DNA of 47,758 nucleotides, taken from a virus (lineage: Duplodnaviria > Caudoviricetes). The position numbers were made by a program, and so were the translations under genes. The DNA lies in IMG/VR virus record IMGVR_UViG_3300033076_000880, positions 1 through 47,758 of that record; one strand, written 5' to 3'. Within the stretch, counting starts at the first letter, position 1, and each line of letters opens with the position of its first letter. The notes beneath the pieces were generated by a model. That model was not told the DNA's origin. It did not search any database and saw nothing but the letters and a program-made list of their open reading frames with translations. Positions 36,656 to 47,758 of the stretch are shown here, one piece after another.

Positions 36656-37620
36656 GAGAAGTTGATTACGGGGCGAGCGACACAGCGACAATTCGCCGCG
36701 TCCCCTGGGTGTCCACGGAAGCCGGTAGCTTGGTCGACAATGGGAGGCGATGCCCAAGCGAACGTGCGTCCGTTAAGCGCACGGTGATCGGCGCGGACCC
36801 GCTCATCTTGGCTGGTTTCCCAGACGTATTGAGTCGCGCCGACATCGAGGTAACGCTGGCGGCGAAACTCCGAGACGAGTGCAGCGGTTTCATTTTCAGC
36901 AATCGAACGCGCCCTCCGTTTGGCGATGCCAAAGTCGGCTTCGAGAACTCGGGTGAGTTTGTCGATGCGTCCTCCTTCAGAGAGATTGTCGCGGACTTTG
37001 GCACGGATGGCAGAGATTTGTTCGAGGCTGAAACCCTTGATCGATCGATCGGTCTGCCGGGTCAGGTCTGTCCTCAGTTCCTCGGAAAGACTCGGCGGAG
37101 TCTCCGAAGGGGGTGGAAGTCCTTCCTCGGCGGATACGGTTTCGACTAACTGCTCCTGTAAGTCTTCGGTGATGTTGTCAACAGTATCCGTGAAAGTGAG
37201 TCCCGTAGGAGCGATCTCGATATGCTCCTGCATCGCGTCGAGAGTTGAGACAATCGATCGATGTAGCTCGGCGCTGGTCGCGATGGACGTTGCGATAGCC
37301 CCGCGCAGGACCAGGGGCACGTCGCCGATGGGCAAGGCAAAATTGTCACCTCTGCGCGTCGCACCCATCGCCCGCAGTTCGCGACTGATCGCCGCGTTGA
37401 ACGTACCCATGAACAGTCCTGAGGCATACCAGATGACTCCTGCCAGCAGGGCATCCCACACAGCGGGGTGCTCCTTGTTCTCGTTCACACGGACGTTGTC
37501 GGCCCGCAGGAGGTTGAACAGCGGGTCGTAGATCGACTGCTCGAGATACGCGATCAACTCTTTCGCCACCTCGTCGGTGTAGCGGTCACGGTGCAGGATC
37601 GGCGCAAGCGTCTTTTTCAC
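36652..37620 (-). CDS. Head morphogenesis protein (SPP1 gp7 / Mu gpF family)
   Basis: RA-x2-IA-x2-ET, Y-x-W-x-TS-x-DERVR-x2-H-x2-L-x-G, HPG-x3-NCRC. Confidence 0.94.
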   Translation of the reverse strand: MKKTLAPILHRDRYTDEVAKELIAYLEQSIYDPLFNLLRADNVRVNENKEHPAVWDALLAGVIWYASGLFMGTFNAAISRELRAMGATRRGDNFALPIGDVPLVLRGAIATSIATSAELHRSIVSTLDAMQEHIEIAPTGLTFTDTVDNITEDLQEQLVETVSAEEGLPPPSETPPSLSEELRTDLTRQTDRSIKGFSLEQISAIRAKVRDNLSEGGRIDKLTRVLEADFGIAKRRARSIAENETAALVSEFRRQRYLDVGATQYVWETSQDERVRADHRALNGRTFAWASPPIVDQATGFRGHPGDAANCRCVARPVINFS

Positions 37621-39089
37621 TCGTCCTTCTTCGCCGGTTCTTTGCCCTTCGCAGCTTTCTCTGGCTTACCAGCGGCAACTGGATCCGTCGCCGTGTCCAT
37701 CATCGGCTCGACGTCACGTTCGCCTCGAGAAACTTCCGTCTCGATGTCCAGCAGGTTCTCGCGACGGAGGATCGTGGATGCCTCGATGCCGGTGACCAGA
37801 CGCTGCTGGAAGAGCTCCATGACTCGAGTCTGCTTCTTGCTCTTGACTTCCTCCTCCTGCACTCCGTCGAGGAGTTTGAGGGGCTTCCATTGGATCGTGT
37901 ACTCGGGGACGAACCCGAAAAGTTGCTGGCAGCGCAAGTCGACCACCTCGATGACGACGGGCTCGGCATTAACTCGAACCTGCTCGACCACGGAATTGTA
38001 ATTCTCGATGGAGTCCTGCCCACTACCAAAACCGCTGGCGCTCTGGCCAAACAGCTTATTCATCGGTATCTTCAAGTCGGCCGACAAATTCAGGCGAATC
38101 TCGTTCCACATCTCAGCAAGGCCCGACCAAGTGAGCTGCTTCTGCTGGTAGGTATCTTCCTTGTCCATCACCAGAGCGTTCTGGAAATTCTTCATCCGGT
38201 TGGCTAAATCAACTCGGCGTTGAGTGTTCGCGGTGCCCTCGTCGGTGAGGAGGGCGTCGTTGAATCCCATGATCGAGAAGACGTCGATCTTGGCCTCGTC
38301 CAGAAGCTCGAAGACCAAGTTCTCGAACTTGATGAACGAGTTGATGGCGCGGATACAGCGCTCGATCTCGCTCATGCCCCAGCCCTGCAGGCGCAGGCGG
38401 ATGTAGCTGGGAGCCTCGAGGCCGAGCACCTTGACCACCCGGGAGGTGTGCAGGGGCAGTCCGTAGTAGCTGAAGGGGGTCGGGTTGCCGACGGCGTAGA
38501 TGTTCGTCTGCGACAGGATCAACTCCCACCGATCTGCGGCCAAAAACTCGAGTGGGGAGTCGGGCTGGATCTTTTCGATGTCGAGCGGTTGGCTGAAATT
38601 CTGGTCGGTATTGATGATGAGCCCCGCGCCACCGTAGAGGCGAGACCAGTTGAGGACGTCCATCATCACGCGGATGTCCGAATTGCCCAAGTTGACGGCG
38701 GCATTCGGGTTCACTCGGCGATTGAATTTGTTCAGCTTGCCACTGCGGGCGCGGCGACGAGGGCGTCGAATCGCGTTCTGGAGTTGAGCCAGTTCGTCGT
38801 CGTTCAGCTCATTGCTCTTGATGTCAAAGCCGCCTCGAAAAGCATCATTCACCGGCTGAGTGACGAGCGTCTGCACGAGACCCTGCGTCATGTACGAATA
38901 CGACAGGACGATCCGGTTTAGCGTGAGCGGTACCCCGGCATTGCCCATCGCCAAGGTGTAAGGTTGTGCAATCGTCTGCGTACCGTAGGTGCCAAGCCCG
39001 CCTGTGGTCTGCGCCACGAGGTCGGACAAGCTATTTAGCCGGGTGCCAGCCTTGTCCTCGAGGCCGGTTTTGGGTTCGGTCGCAGTCAT
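37617..39089 (-). CDS. Portal protein (DUF1073 type)
   Basis: RLYGG, H-x-SRV, GWG-x-S, IP-x2-KLFGQS-x2-GF, NY; position between terminase and head genes. Confidence 0.92.
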   Translation of the reverse strand: MTATEPKTGLEDKAGTRLNSLSDLVAQTTGGLGTYGTQTIAQPYTLAMGNAGVPLTLNRIVLSYSYMTQGLVQTLVTQPVNDAFRGGFDIKSNELNDDELAQLQNAIRRPRRRARSGKLNKFNRRVNPNAAVNLGNSDIRVMMDVLNWSRLYGGAGLIINTDQNFSQPLDIEKIQPDSPLEFLAADRWELILSQTNIYAVGNPTPFSYYGLPLHTSRVVKVLGLEAPSYIRLRLQGWGMSEIERCIRAINSFIKFENLVFELLDEAKIDVFSIMGFNDALLTDEGTANTQRRVDLANRMKNFQNALVMDKEDTYQQKQLTWSGLAEMWNEIRLNLSADLKIPMNKLFGQSASGFGSGQDSIENYNSVVEQVRVNAEPVVIEVVDLRCQQLFGFVPEYTIQWKPLKLLDGVQEEEVKSKKQTRVMELFQQRLVTGIEASTILRRENLLDIETEVSRGERDVEPMMDTATDPVAAGKPEKAAKGKEPAKKDE

Positions 39090-39196
39090 CGGTAATTGCG
39101 TATTGCATCACCCACGACATTAGGGCAAGTCCAATCCAGTGCTGCGGGTTCCGATCCTTTTTCTGGAGCAATACCGCATCCAGATAAATCAAAACC

Positions 39197-39457
39197 ATGA
39201 GCCAAGTAACTAGAGCAAAAATGCAGGTCCAAACGGTCATTCCCTATGACCCGGCACTGAACCGAAACTGCGAAGAGGTTAAATTGTTCGCTGTGTGCGG
39301 CAATCAACCCTTCGGCCCCAATGGCGAATCTGAGGATAACTCGTTCGCTCGTTGGACCCCCACAGGCAGTATGCAAATGACCATTACAAATCCAAGTCTG
39401 TTCGGGGTGTTCCAGCCCGGTCAGAAATTCTACGTCGACCTGACTCCCGCAGACTGA
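39197..39457 (+). CDS. Conserved small hypothetical protein, lone + strand gene in the late arm
   Basis: RAK ... F-x2-WTP-x-GS-x2-M-x-I-x-NP ... F-x-PG-x2-FYVD-x-TP pattern; has its own terminator. Confidence 0.85.
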   Translation: MSQVTRAKMQVQTVIPYDPALNRNCEEVKLFAVCGNQPFGPNGESEDNSFARWTPTGSMQMTITNPSLFGVFQPGQKFYVDLTPAD

Positions 39458-39492
39458 CCCCAAAAACCTGTTTTCAAGCTCTCTTAAGAGCC

Positions 39493-39536
39493 GAGCCCCG
39501 GTTGCCCGCAAGGGAGGTCGGGGTCTTTTTATTTTT
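39493..39536 (+). terminator. Intrinsic terminator for 39197-39457
   Basis: GC-rich hairpin with GCAA tetraloop followed by TTTTTATTTTT. Confidence 0.75.
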
Positions 39537-39612
39537 GGAGCTGTTACCAGGGGGCGAGCGACCGAGGAGTCCGTCCTCAGTCTGTTTTGTCCCGCCCGCT
39601 GGTAGCAGTCCC
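39537..39612. ncRNA. Stem-closed structured unit
   Basis: CTGTTACCAG/CTGGTAGCAG, then GGGCG/CGCCC and an inner GACCGAGGA/TCCTCAGTC hairpin; strand ambiguous. Confidence 0.5.
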
Positions 39613-39692
39613 TAACTCGGTTTCCCGATCTGCGCTATTAAGCATGGGACTCGACCGACCACGTTCGTCGGAGCGGAACCCTCTTACCCTAA

Positions 39693-39733
39693 GAAAACAA
39701 AGAACCCACATCCGCTTAAAGATGTGGGTTTTT
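39693..39733. terminator. Bidirectional intrinsic terminator-like hairpin
   Basis: AACCCACATC/GATGTGGGTT 10-bp stem with A-rich left and T-rich right flank. Confidence 0.75.
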
Positions 39734-39820
39734 CCGTCTAGCTGACCCTGCTTCCTCCGCTATCGGGTCACTCTCAGCGGCAGTTGAGTGAGTTACTTCA
39801 TTGGTGGTGAGGGAAAGGTG

Positions 39821-39910
39821 TCACGGCAGCGAGGCGTCCCGAGTTACCTTTGGGACCGGCCCCCGTTACTCTTGCGAGTGGGGATACCGAGAAAAGTATC
39901 GCTGCCGTGA
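39821..39910 (-). ncRNA. Four-way-junction structured RNA unit (90 nt)
   Basis: 12-bp inverted repeat TCACGGCAGCGA/TCGCTGCCGTGA enclosing three hairpins; GCAA and GTAA tetraloops on the - strand. Confidence 0.7.
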
Positions 39911-39917
39911 AAATGAA

Positions 39918-39982
39918 AGACGCCGAGCGGGTTGGATTGCTAGTTAGTTTGCTTTAGTGTAACCGGCAAGTGCTCGGCGTCT
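39918..39982 (-). ncRNA. Stem-closed RNA unit (65 nt)
   Basis: 11-bp inverted repeat AGACGCCGAGC/GCTCGGCGTCT; strand inferred from neighbours. Confidence 0.6.
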
Positions 39983-39985
39983 AAT

Positions 39986-40028
39986 TGGTGCGGGCCAGTG
40001 ACAAGGTCGCTAAACCATACCAGCCCGC
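39986..40028 (-). ncRNA. tRNA-acceptor-like minihelix ending in ACCA (43 nt)
   Basis: GCGGGCUGGU pairs with ACUGGCCCGC (two G-U pairs that form only on the - strand), followed by ACCA. Confidence 0.65.
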
Positions 40029-40091
40029 CGAGTTTCGTCGCAGTCGATCTTGGACTACGCCCGCTAAGGCGCAGTTTCTCCAAGTTTGCAA

Positions 40092-40156
40092 TCCCCACGA
40101 CTACCTCGAAATTGAATTGCTCCTGACACAGCAGGCTCCGCAAACCAGTCGTGGGA
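40092..40156 (-). ncRNA. Stem-closed RNA unit (65 nt)
   Basis: CCCACGACT/AGTCGTGGG 9-bp inverted repeat, inner CCTG/CAGG hairpin. Confidence 0.58.
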
Positions 40157-40159
40157 AAG

Positions 40160-40223
40160 TGATACTTTCGACGTGCTGGCGATGAGCTTAATCCTGCCAA
40201 GAACTCATATCTCGGATGTATCA
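40160..40223 (-). ncRNA. Stem-closed RNA unit (64 nt)
   Basis: TGATAC/GTATCA outer stem, ATGAG/CTCAT inner stem. Confidence 0.45.
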
Positions 40224-40232
40224 GAAGCAAAT

Positions 40233-40532
40233 TGGTGGATGTGGCGGGAGTCGAACCCGCGTGCTTCAAATTTCGCCCGTCACCTCGACATGCTTAAAGG
40301 GTGCCTGAGATCAGGCACCTCCACCATCTAGCTGTTTAGACCGTCGCTAGAACCGGCTTTTCGCTGTATCCAAAGCGGGCAAGAATCTCGTCCGCTTGCT
40401 CCAGACTGGGAGCTTCAGTGAGGCTAATGTTAGTGTTAGCTTTTATGGTTTGGCACGAAGTTTACGAGTATCAGTGCCATCCTCGGCATGCAGTTCGGAG
40501 CTACGTTGGAAGTAGAATCCATGAACACACCC
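40233..40532 (-). ncRNA. ssrA: tmRNA (one-piece, 300 nt), tag ANTNISLTEAPSLEQADEILARFGYSEKPVLATV*
   Basis: Acceptor GGGUGUG/CACAUCC with G3-U wobble and encoded ACCA; T-arm GCGGG-UUCGACU-CCCGC; 5' GGAUUCUAC; GCAUGC/GCAUGU helix; AUAAAA-GCU resume context; tag ORF 40440-40336. Confidence 0.95.
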
Positions 40533-40541
40533 AAAAGTTTC

Positions 40542-40598
40542 GCCACCACCTCAACGTGCTTTCCTGTTTTCTCTTACCCCACTCGCAGAGGTGGTGGC
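40542..40598 (-). ncRNA. Stem-closed RNA unit (57 nt) immediately upstream of the tmRNA
   Basis: 11-bp inverted repeat GCCACCACCTC/GAGGTGGTGGC with purine-rich interior on the - strand. Confidence 0.6.
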
Positions 40599-40670
40599 TT
40601 GTTAAAGAACATCGGTTGAGCCGACGGATGAGAAGAGAACAACTCTTGTGCTGTCGCGCAAGAACTAATT

Positions 40671-42227
40671 TCAAATAATCGACGCCTCACTGAACTTGGA
40701 TGCCTCGACCTCTTTTTTCTCAACCTTGGCGTCGATGATCTTCTTGAACACCGCCACCAGCGGGTCTCGCATTGCCTCGTCCAGCTCCGCATCCAATTCC
40801 TTCTTACGTCGCTCGGCTTCCTCCTTCTTGAATGCCTCGGTCTGCGCAGGCGTCATGCGCCGCCCACCAATGACACTGAGGATCGAAGTGCCCTTGCCGA
40901 GGCAGAGAAACACCCCGTCGGCGAATGCGTCGACTTGGTCATCCTTGGTGCTCTTGCCGTCCTCGCGGAACGCAGCGCACTCCTGCTCGAACGCAGGCAG
41001 CCACGTCGCGTCCTTTGGCAGCCAGACCATGCCGGTCGCTTGGTAAGCCAAGATCTGCTTCACGCGGGTCACCTTGTCCTTCACGCGAATGACGCCCTTC
41101 GTGGGGATGCCTTTCTTGCGGAGGTCTTGGATGAGCGTCAGACCAGCGGCGGCTTCCTCGACACTCATGTAGGCGACGGGCGAAGCAGACTTGTGGTGCT
41201 TCTCGTAGAAAGCCCTGGCGATGCGGAGCAGGTCAGCAGGTGCCCATTTGCCGCGCATCTGGTCGATCAGGTAGGCTTTCTTCTGATACCGACCCCAGCA
41301 CTGGAGAACCGAGTGGTCGTTCGCTTCCTTGGTCTTCATGGCGGTGTCGGCCACGATGATCTTGAACTCGAACTTGGGTGCGTATTCGGCGGTGTAATAC
41401 CTAAAGTCCTCCGTCTTGATGAGGTTGCCGCCGATGACGGTCGGCTCTTGAAGATACTGCGCAGCGAAGGCGAAGGGATTCACCCGTTGCGTGTCCAGCA
41501 GGGACTTCGTGCTGACGGTCTCGGGGATCGCCGACTCGCCGTTCGGGGCGAGGGCGGAGAACTTGATATGGTGAACGTCGTCGGGATACTCGCGCAGCAC
41601 GAAGCCGGACAAGTCCTCCGTATCAAGCCGCTGCATACAAATGATGATCGGAGTCCACTGCGAACTGTTGCGGCGGGACTTGAGGGTATTCTCGAACCAA
41701 AACCGCAGTTTCTCCGACTCCACCCTCGAGAGTGCCTCATCGGGCTTGCTGGGATCGTCCAGCACGATGAACCCGCCAGCGCGACGCTTGAGCCCCGCAC
41801 CAAGGCCGGTCAGCGATCCACCGACGCCGTCGCCGTAGACCTTGCCGCCGTTCTCCGTCGTGAAGTGGTCGGCTTGACGAATCTGGCCCAGCCGGGTCGG
41901 AAACAGCTCGGCATACCACGGCGTCGCCATGACCTGCTGAATGTAGCGCACCGACGTCTTCGCCAGCTCGTTCGAGTAGCTGAGATAGATCATCTGCGCG
42001 TCGGGAAAATACCCCAACATCCAAGAGTTCAGTGCCTCCATGATCTTCGTCTTACCCACGCGAGGCGGGATGTTGACCACGACGAAGCTCTTGTTCAGCT
42101 GGCCCAGCACGGCGCGTTGCAGGGTCTCGCACGACGAACGGTGCAGATCTTTGATGGGTAGCTCCAGCCCCATCAAGGGCACGAAGGCTTTCTCGAAATA
42201 GTCGGCGAATGAAAGGAAGTCGCTCAT
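40671..42227 (-). CDS. terL: Terminase large subunit
   Basis: NIPPRVGKT Walker A, LTG-x-GA, IVLDDP Walker B, MQRL, F-x-AQY-x-QEP, DTA-x-K-x4-ND-x-S, DDQVDA. Confidence 0.96.
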   Translation of the reverse strand: MSDFLSFADYFEKAFVPLMGLELPIKDLHRSSCETLQRAVLGQLNKSFVVVNIPPRVGKTKIMEALNSWMLGYFPDAQMIYLSYSNELAKTSVRYIQQVMATPWYAELFPTRLGQIRQADHFTTENGGKVYGDGVGGSLTGLGAGLKRRAGGFIVLDDPSKPDEALSRVESEKLRFWFENTLKSRRNSSQWTPIIICMQRLDTEDLSGFVLREYPDDVHHIKFSALAPNGESAIPETVSTKSLLDTQRVNPFAFAAQYLQEPTVIGGNLIKTEDFRYYTAEYAPKFEFKIIVADTAMKTKEANDHSVLQCWGRYQKKAYLIDQMRGKWAPADLLRIARAFYEKHHKSASPVAYMSVEEAAAGLTLIQDLRKKGIPTKGVIRVKDKVTRVKQILAYQATGMVWLPKDATWLPAFEQECAAFREDGKSTKDDQVDAFADGVFLCLGKGTSILSVIGGRRMTPAQTEAFKKEEAERRKKELDAELDEAMRDPLVAVFKKIIDAKVEKKEVEASKFSEASII

Positions 42228-47691: not shown

Positions 47692-47758
47692 CGCTGCCAC
47701 GCTGCCACGCTGCCACGCTGCCACGCTGCCACGCTGCCACGCTGCCACGCTGCCACGC
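47692..47758. repeat. Tandem 8-bp repeat (TGCCACGC)n, right part
   Basis: About 8.4 units running to the window end. Confidence 0.98.

Follow-up and report, generated by a model that had tools for sequence, protein, structure and literature searches.

The question why phages carry transfer-messenger RNA (tmRNA) has so far met with speculative answers in the available papers, and it is raised anew by a locus in the IMG/VR virus record IMGVR_UViG_3300033076_000880 (Duplodnaviria; Caudoviricetes). The record is complete, with direct terminal repeats, and the whole of its 47,758 bp was analyzed as one stretch, here called the window. An original prediction, made from the letters of this DNA, had placed at 40233..40532 a tmRNA with an alanyl domain, a first pseudoknot (PK1) and a long tag reading frame. 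What does so small an RNA do for a 48-kb phage? We find that it is a genuine one-piece tmRNA with PK1 intact, that the short ring after its tag stop holds a conserved unit in which two hairpins flank the heptamer UGGUGGA, the reverse complement of the alanine acceptor end, and that its tag carries the marks of selection as a peptide. Papers are cited by PMC number, for what is stated in the parts of them available to us.

The gene (minus strand, 300 nucleotides [nt]) matches the Rfam tmRNA model RF00023 over its full length (40532-40233; 96.2 bits, E = 2e-36, model positions 1-374, gathering score 47), and the Rfam check that had been proposed for it therefore succeeds. The proposed ARAGORN check fails: The program makes no call at default, -ps95, or -ps90 and gives spurious matches at lower settings, so genes of this kind are under-counted. 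The acceptor GGGUGUG/CACAUCC has 7 bp including G3-U70, a discriminator A73, and an encoded CCA; its 5′ strand with G3 (40526..40532) forms seven of seven pairs with 40237-40243, and the T-arm, a perfect 5-bp stem, together with the 3′ acceptor strand, discriminator A, and CCA occupies 40233..40260 (Rfam and folding). Helix 2 (H2), which closes the ring, has its 5′ strand GCAUGC at 40486..40491 and its 3′ strand AAGCAUGU at 40288..40295. PK1 (40451..40485) has stems of 4 bp and 6 bp, CGAG/CUCG and (U)GGCAC/GUGCC(A), with compensatory changes in an alignment of 11 relatives. Pseudoknots PK2-PK4 are gone, as had been predicted: Only 42 nt separate the tag stop from the closing GCAUG (about 40 had been estimated), and this ring is among the most stripped one-piece rings sampled. 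It thereby offers a natural test of the minimal needs of trans-translation.

Standard SsrA (RF00023) and the phage RNA share the alanine acceptor with G3-U70, the T-arm, H2, PK1, the resume signal, and a frame with a stop. The phage RNA differs in its length of 300 nt, in lacking PK2-PK4, in its 42-nt ring with a unit of the wcaG type (see below), and in having U at the position of G19; its tag, unlike that of SsrA, has a conserved core predicted to be helical and ends in ATV. The PK2-PK4 ring is typical but replaceable (PMC2481249). Phage tmRNAs are known as 79 unique sequences (PMC11915505) and from 402 of 18,146 phage genomes (PMC9004378), and their small size is already known: GenBank holds compact tmRNAs of Streptomyces phage Blueeyedbeauty (295 nt) and the crAss-like phage cr106_1 (305 nt). 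The former has a 13-amino-acid (aa) tag and no UGGUGGA, whereas the latter is 98.7% identical to a unit-bearing locus of our sample (L455). Both genomes are of 100-130 kb, in contrast to the window, where the tmRNA stands alone in 48 kb without a tRNA. Compactness alone is thus a modest novelty; what appears to be new is the alanine-addressed wcaG-type unit inside a tmRNA and the peptide-level conservation of the tag. In a largely non-subscription literature, with the per-motif discussion of PMC2864571 outside its scope, we found no report of a CCA-complementary unit inside a tmRNA or of a conserved tag helix.

The ring consists of hairpin A, UGGUGGA, and hairpin B. Hairpin A (40327..40351 by folding; 6 bp, UCUAGC/GCUAGA, strands 40351-40346/40332-40327) encloses the stop codon and abuts UGGUGGA (40320..40326), after which come hairpin B (40319-40300; 8 bp with an AUCU loop, 9 bp requiring a 2-nt loop) and a CUUU strand loosely facing the heptamer, these last two spanning 40296..40319. 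The original prediction had seen a single post-stop hairpin, which is present, and had overlooked the other hairpin and the conserved heptamer. To place the unit among other viral tmRNAs we used a scan keyed only on the tmRNA 3′ domain and so blind to the ring, which gave at least 119 loci; 42 of the 119 listed had no recoverable 5′ end and were dropped. Among the matches listed are 70 unique full-length viral tmRNAs; 19 of them have UGGUGGA, and none of the 14 with tags of 12 aa or fewer does. It ranks first among 7-mers of the ring, with 17 of 50 non-redundant viral tmRNAs. Among 93 bacterial tmRNAs (30 Verrucomicrobiota, 31 Bacteroidota, 30 Planctomycetota, and two other; top-scoring loci), two contain it, inside H2 or without a hairpin, and neither shows the unit.

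The base after UGGUGGA is free (G in eight, U in five, A in three, C in three). With the fourth base of the motif left open, 132 of 149 unique 3′ domains (214 loci) read UGGUGGA, their own end being UCC-A; several of the variants in this set are overlapping reads of UGGUGGA or non-tmRNAs. A stem of at least 6 bp ends exactly before the heptamer in 59 of 89 representatives (shuffles: mean 8.3, maximum 17), the stems having varied pair types and a U-tract in front. A second hairpin follows across the unit family, and CCC lies 12-50 nt after UGGUGGA in 75 of the 89 (shuffles: mean 30, maximum 42). Seven of the 89 carriers have two units, the window ring one. The distance from tag stop to unit ranges from 9 to 220 nt among carriers, and the unit is also present in the differently built tmRNA of phage Phass-1.

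UGGUGGA is the exact reverse complement of U70-A76 (UCCACCA) of tmRNA and tRNA-Ala: The motif begins opposite A76, and its conservation ends opposite U70. Its last bases, GGA, are complementary to the 3′ strand; a motif copied from the 5′ strand would end in GGG. In the window, UGGUGGA and the next 4 nt (to 40316) exactly complement CACCUCCACCA, an end of the type found in nine of the 10 nearest sampled bacterial tmRNAs, and show one mismatch in 11 to the RNA's own end. Across the family, none of 89 heads of 11 nt matches the own end, and pairing of the four bases after the heptamer (+1 to +4) with positions 69-66 of the same RNA is no more frequent than chance (23, 15, 21, and 25 of 86). In four carriers (L152, L481, L460, and L198) the own end is deviant, yet UGGUGGA is uncompensated. 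The uncompensated deviant ends and the chance-level pairing of +1 to +4 favor a target in trans over one in cis. We think it somewhat more likely than not that the unit pairs with some alanine acceptor end.

A natural point of comparison is the T-box riboswitch, whose UGGN is fixed beside helix A1, stacks on the helix, and selects uncharged tRNA ends (PMC7583486). Like the T-box discriminator, the phage unit places UGGN directly after a helix, has 7 nt between two helices, and is complementary to NCCA. Unlike the T-box it lacks Stem I and the specifier as well as an expression platform (antiterminator/terminator switch), its flanking helices are separate hairpins, and its putative pairing extends three bases into the acceptor stem; the Rfam scans gave no T-box match.

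Closer kinship is found with the wcaG motif (RF01761), which was reported as a candidate riboswitch or cis-regulatory element of two units from the 5′ untranslated regions (UTRs) of marine phages (PMC2864571) and was still called cis-regulatory in 2023 (PMC9964418). The available seed rows in the supplement of PMC2864571 show a hairpin-head-hairpin unit in tandem, including the head UGGUGGAG. Both wcaG and the ring unit have a U-rich flank, a hairpin, a UGGY head, and a second hairpin with a 3′ strand pairing back to the head, and the ring unit likewise has its first hairpin directly before UGGY and then its second. In wcaG the units are tandem, with a pseudoknot, in a 5′ UTR, whereas the ring unit is single, lies inside a tmRNA, and is fixed on the alanine end. 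In related phage tmRNA rings RF01761 scores 37, 26, and 24 bits in three of 16 loci tested, the best being Phass-1, against a gathering score of 42. With its shape shared and no Rfam score reaching gathering, the unit is of wcaG type and not a formal wcaG member.

The heads of wcaG itself may also be addressed to tRNA ends. The commonest first-unit head seen in the available part of the wcaG set, UGGUGCGGAUG, complements a T-arm-preceded end in an estimated 290 viral stretches. For ends complementary to it ARAGORN finds 90 tRNAs in 122 loci, 82 of them Leu, and for ends complementary to the variant head UGGUCGGGAUG 88 of 99 ARAGORN tRNAs are Pro. Many of the wcaG seed rows available in the supplement of PMC2864571 end in GUGCAUG, which resembles the H2 3′ strand GCAUG of tmRNA; judged from sequence, some wcaG RNAs may border tmRNA pieces.

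Several unit-bearing loci are worth recording on their own account. One 31-kb viral contig has two compact long-tag tmRNAs (L153 and L158; 320 and 312 nt), both unit-bearing and 1.3 kb apart among tRNA genes. In Phass-1 (L567:294-732, OQ749652) a tmRNA of 439 nt lies unannotated; it has two units of the wcaG type, and the head of its first unit, UGGUACCGC, resembles the T-box consensus. In the cultured crAss-like Kehishuvirus "tikkala" (L571:1500-1810, OQ198717), the sole cultured carrier found, an unannotated unit-bearing tmRNA has its T-arm 3′ side and acceptor strand replaced and is apparently broken; with its 3′ end disrupted it would be a poor test system.

The tag frame (40336..40440, minus strand) has 34 codons and UAA and translates as ANTNISLTEAPSLEQADEILARFGYSEKPVLATV, ending in ATV. 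Tag calling was heuristic throughout. The frame begins 10 nt past PK1 and is preceded by U(-5)A(-4), the same resume context as U85/A86 in Escherichia coli tmRNA (PMC2481249); bacterial tags range from 8 to 35 aa (PMC8012679), which puts the phage tag near the top. Its core, APSxxEADxILAxxG[YFW] (40363..40413), fits an N-capped amphipathic helix as predicted from its sequence, and APSxxEADxILAxxG is common to 14 of 200 unique viral or metagenomic tmRNAs. Pairwise identity in the core is 0.77, 0.76, and 0.36 at codon positions 1, 2, and 3. Between the window tag and its 13 relatives, synonymous differences (pS) are 0.54-0.99 and nonsynonymous differences (pN) 0.20-0.46, a contrast that counts for less because the relatives were chosen by motif and are biased to low pN. 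The near-saturated third positions nevertheless speak for a frame that is, or has been, under translation and under selection at the peptide level. The profile of the 13 sequences has no Pfam match and matches in PDB only at E = 0.3 and 1.5, and a tblastn search of cultured phages with the tag found nothing. A second long-tag family, [ST]xTF[ED]DxMxFVGA (L059, L064, L083, L092, L099, L100, and others), has the same N-capped amphipathic pattern and often accompanies a UGGUGGA unit.

Long tags are common in this sample, at least 20 aa in 41 of 70 viral tmRNAs among the matches listed. The original prediction held that the long frame replaces the pseudoknot ring. In keeping with this, a post-stop ring of <70 nt occurs in five of 190 viral or metagenomic tmRNAs and all five have 33-35-codon tags, a length that fits a minimum loop size for these smallest rings. 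As the reason for long tags it does not hold, since 34 of 47 tags of at least 26 aa occur in RNAs with rings of at least 120 nt. Long tags mostly in large rings and a core kept as amino acids argue that the tag is not mere filler.

Our favored reading of the locus, to which we give a little less than an even chance, is that the unit captures host tmRNA in its uncharged state, and that stalled proteins receive the long tag of the phage RNA itself. UGGU would serve as a toehold on the free ACCA, stacked on hairpin A as the T-box UGGN is on helix A1. GGA would then take the place of G1-G2-G3, so that the G3-U70 wobble, the pair that gives alanine identity, would give way to an A-U pair; the C/U strand that follows hairpin B could in turn pair with the G's so released. 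Capture would be confined to uncharged ends free of EF-Tu, and charging of host tmRNA would be blocked. Because hairpin A overlaps the stop codon, the unit would be active while the RNA is free and would melt during translation of the tag. Meanwhile ribosome rescue by the phage RNA, with SmpB from the host, would append its long tag. The helix of the tag probably attaches to a protein of the host, for instance a protease or adaptor, and so would alter the fate of the tagged product. That this exact RNA tags at all seems to us somewhat better than an even chance. More speculatively, and in our view nearer to doubtful than to likely, wcaG units may be an address-coded set of phage traps directed at the 3′ ends of Leu, Pro, and Ala tRNAs, the alanine unit having been built into tmRNAs by diverse phages so that a single RNA puts host tmRNA out of action and assumes ribosome rescue itself, using a helix-bearing tag of the phage's choosing. 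The unit would in this way tie the question of why phages carry tmRNA to the function of wcaG, and, if the proposal is right, a trans-acting, T-box-like antisense device against translation RNAs is widespread in phages.

A number of observations weigh against trapping and tagging as just described. Seven bases are too few to set host tmRNA apart from the own end of the phage RNA or from tRNA-Ala, which would be caught as well. Nearest-neighbor cofolding gives about -2 kcal/mol without stacking terms, and the minimum free energy solution leaves the RNAs apart; the cofolding preference for Ala (0.62 vs. 0.19) is a trivial consequence of complementarity. Family-wide, 11-nt heads match common bacterial ends in 12 of 89 cases, no significant excess over a column shuffle (mean 9.1, P = 0.15). 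In the window the UGGU is predicted to pair with an upstream GCCG, the U-tract typical of the unit family is short, and the Rfam wcaG model has no match at E ≤ 10. The second-unit wcaG heads match at most eight of 11 bases among 101 tRNA ends. H2 is modest, the tRNA-like domain plus H2 folding at -38 kcal/mol (relatives, -36 to -51), and the ATV end is seen in one of 100 long tags, where 77 of 100 end in AA.

Among other accounts of the locus, one is that the RNA is an accessory tmRNA supplementing host rescue, with the unit a structural or protein-binding stand-in for helix 5 (H5) and PK2 on the 30S beak and its CCA complementarity incidental. Contacts of the ring with uS3-uS5 are made by H5 and PK2 (PMC8363625); like H5, hairpin A has the stop codon within it, and G5-G6 of the motif can pair internally with downstream CC. 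We consider this unlikely, since a stand-in for H5/PK2 sits poorly with a unit whose distance from the stop varies more than 20-fold and which is found in differing tmRNA backbones, including that of Phass-1. Internal pairing would permit covariation, yet the 7-mer is invariant, and in other wcaG heads the complement is to Leu or Pro ends instead.

The copy may instead no longer tag, being a decaying or repurposed tmRNA and at most a decoy for host tmRNA, alanyl-tRNA synthetase, or EF-Tu. In favor of this, the D-loop reads UCUAC instead of UCGAC, with U (40514, minus strand) replacing the conserved, SmpB-contacting G19, a state seen in one of 146 viral or metagenomic and none of 93 bacterial tmRNAs. 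G19 stacks on SmpB, and G19C abolishes binding (PMC8363625), so the U casts doubt on tagging by this copy, and it also weakens the predicted use of host SmpB; if the RNA tags at all it is host-dependent, the genome having no smpB. The ATV end, an irregular H2, and absence of the gene from 13 of 13 close terminase relatives point the same way, and there is a precedent in phage DS6A, which has a tmRNA consisting of the tRNA-like domain only (PMC4131195), described as an inhibitor of host tmRNA (PMC11915505). Set against decay are the intact acceptor, T-arm, PK1, resume context, and open 34-codon frame; the SmpB effect, moreover, is known for G19C and the change here is G19U. A lake-metagenome contig of 272 bases from another study is ~96% identical over the tmRNA 5′ third. 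Of the 107 tmRNA bases covered, this sister contig differs at two, with no difference listed for position 19 and one of the two keeping an H2 pair as a wobble, as against seven listed changes and a deletion in 163 upstream bases. On balance loss of tagging, too, is improbable.

The unit might also have as its partner the uncharged end of the phage tmRNA itself, bound in cis or in a dimer, either shielding it from nucleases and CCA-modifying defense enzymes or timing its recharging. The carriers themselves mostly end in UCCA (the 132 of 149 above), the window end matches at 10 of 11 bases, and cofolding energies are alike for own and host ends. We nonetheless rate own-end binding as distinctly improbable, given the four uncompensated own-end variants and the chance-level pairing of +1 to +4 with own positions 69-66; the motif is, by its placement, probably tethered near the base of H2 and far from the CCA end.

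GGAGGUG, present in the window at 40322-40316, resembles the Shine-Dalgarno consensus and might pair with 16S rRNA, a very improbable reading given that the base after GGA is unconserved, that the 5′ UGGU is conserved, and that no start codon and frame follow inside the RNA. Least probable of all, and already largely refuted, is a captured host tmRNA of the same reduced layout: The 10 nearest of the 93 bacterial tmRNAs are all Verrucomicrobiota, consistent with a backbone of bacterial source, but the comparison with bacterial tmRNAs that had been set as a test finds no such layout among the 93, which are 345-431 nt long, lack the unit, and in 29 of 30 Verrucomicrobiota have tags of 8-10 aa, and thus the phage did not capture this layout from a host. 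When GTDB as a whole was scanned for the ring motif, 41 matches came up, 40 by chance and one a tmRNA; this last, a second copy located next to the portal gene of a phage in a Mucilaginibacter metagenome-assembled genome, is also the only match in 401 Bacteroidota genomes. The scan anchor is present in 15 of the 93 bacterial tmRNAs, so these scans sample and do not exclude.

The genome encodes DNA polymerase, primase, helicases, sheath, and baseplate and is that of a myovirus. As predicted, neither tRNA genes nor, at E ≤ 10, SmpB were found in the complete genome. The tmRNA lies between the terminase large subunit upstream (40671..42227, minus strand; phrog_38, E = 4e-88) and the portal protein downstream (37617..39089, minus strand; phrog_146, E = 9e-70), with ~1.1 kb of non-coding, hairpin-rich DNA separating it from the portal gene. 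Cultured-phage relatives of the terminase are at most 38% identical, and 13 close IMG/VR relatives (67%-87% identity) all span the terminase-portal interval; none of the 13 has an Rfam match there. The interval is ~90 bp in the three closest and holds unrelated open reading frames (ORFs) in the others inspected. With the tmRNA absent from this variable interval in 13 of 13 relatives, we regard it as a lineage-restricted insert in a variable slot. No sigma-70-type promoter was found in 39050-40750, and the tmRNA is probably read from the late operon. As to the host, the nearness score that ranks the Verrucomicrobiota first includes acceptor-end bases, and their sequences give a hint only; capsid homologs and cluster names gave nothing usable as host candidates.

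Upstream of the tmRNA, a leader hairpin of 11 bp (40542..40598, minus strand, by folding) holds a UGGUGGC paired with GCCACCA from the same hairpin, imitating in cis the pairing proposed between head and CCA end; the region 40535-40630 that includes it has a folding z of -3.25. The hairpin is unconserved, with an upstream UGGUGG in four and CCACCA in one of 71 carriers. Between tmRNA and portal gene, several non-coding elements fold strongly, at 39815-39915 (z = -5.8), 39495-39620 (z = -4.0), and 39920-40030 (z = -3.1). These elements (39495-40030, minus strand) have no Rfam match and no blastn match outside tmRNA in the fetched loci. A two-way terminator-like hairpin lies at 39703-39730. The terminase has a C-terminal extension of ~40-55 charged residues past its relatives' ends (40671-40850, minus strand). 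Translations read by eye show HNH-like, radical-SAM-like, and reverse-strand glycosyltransferase-like ORFs in the terminase-portal intervals of relatives L001, L004, L008, L010, and L011, and an intein-like insert in the terminase of L011. Finally, the genome ends (1-76 and 47695-47758) carry a tandem array of the 7-mer TGCCACG and a 64-base terminal repeat, the array being a possible origin or packaging signal.
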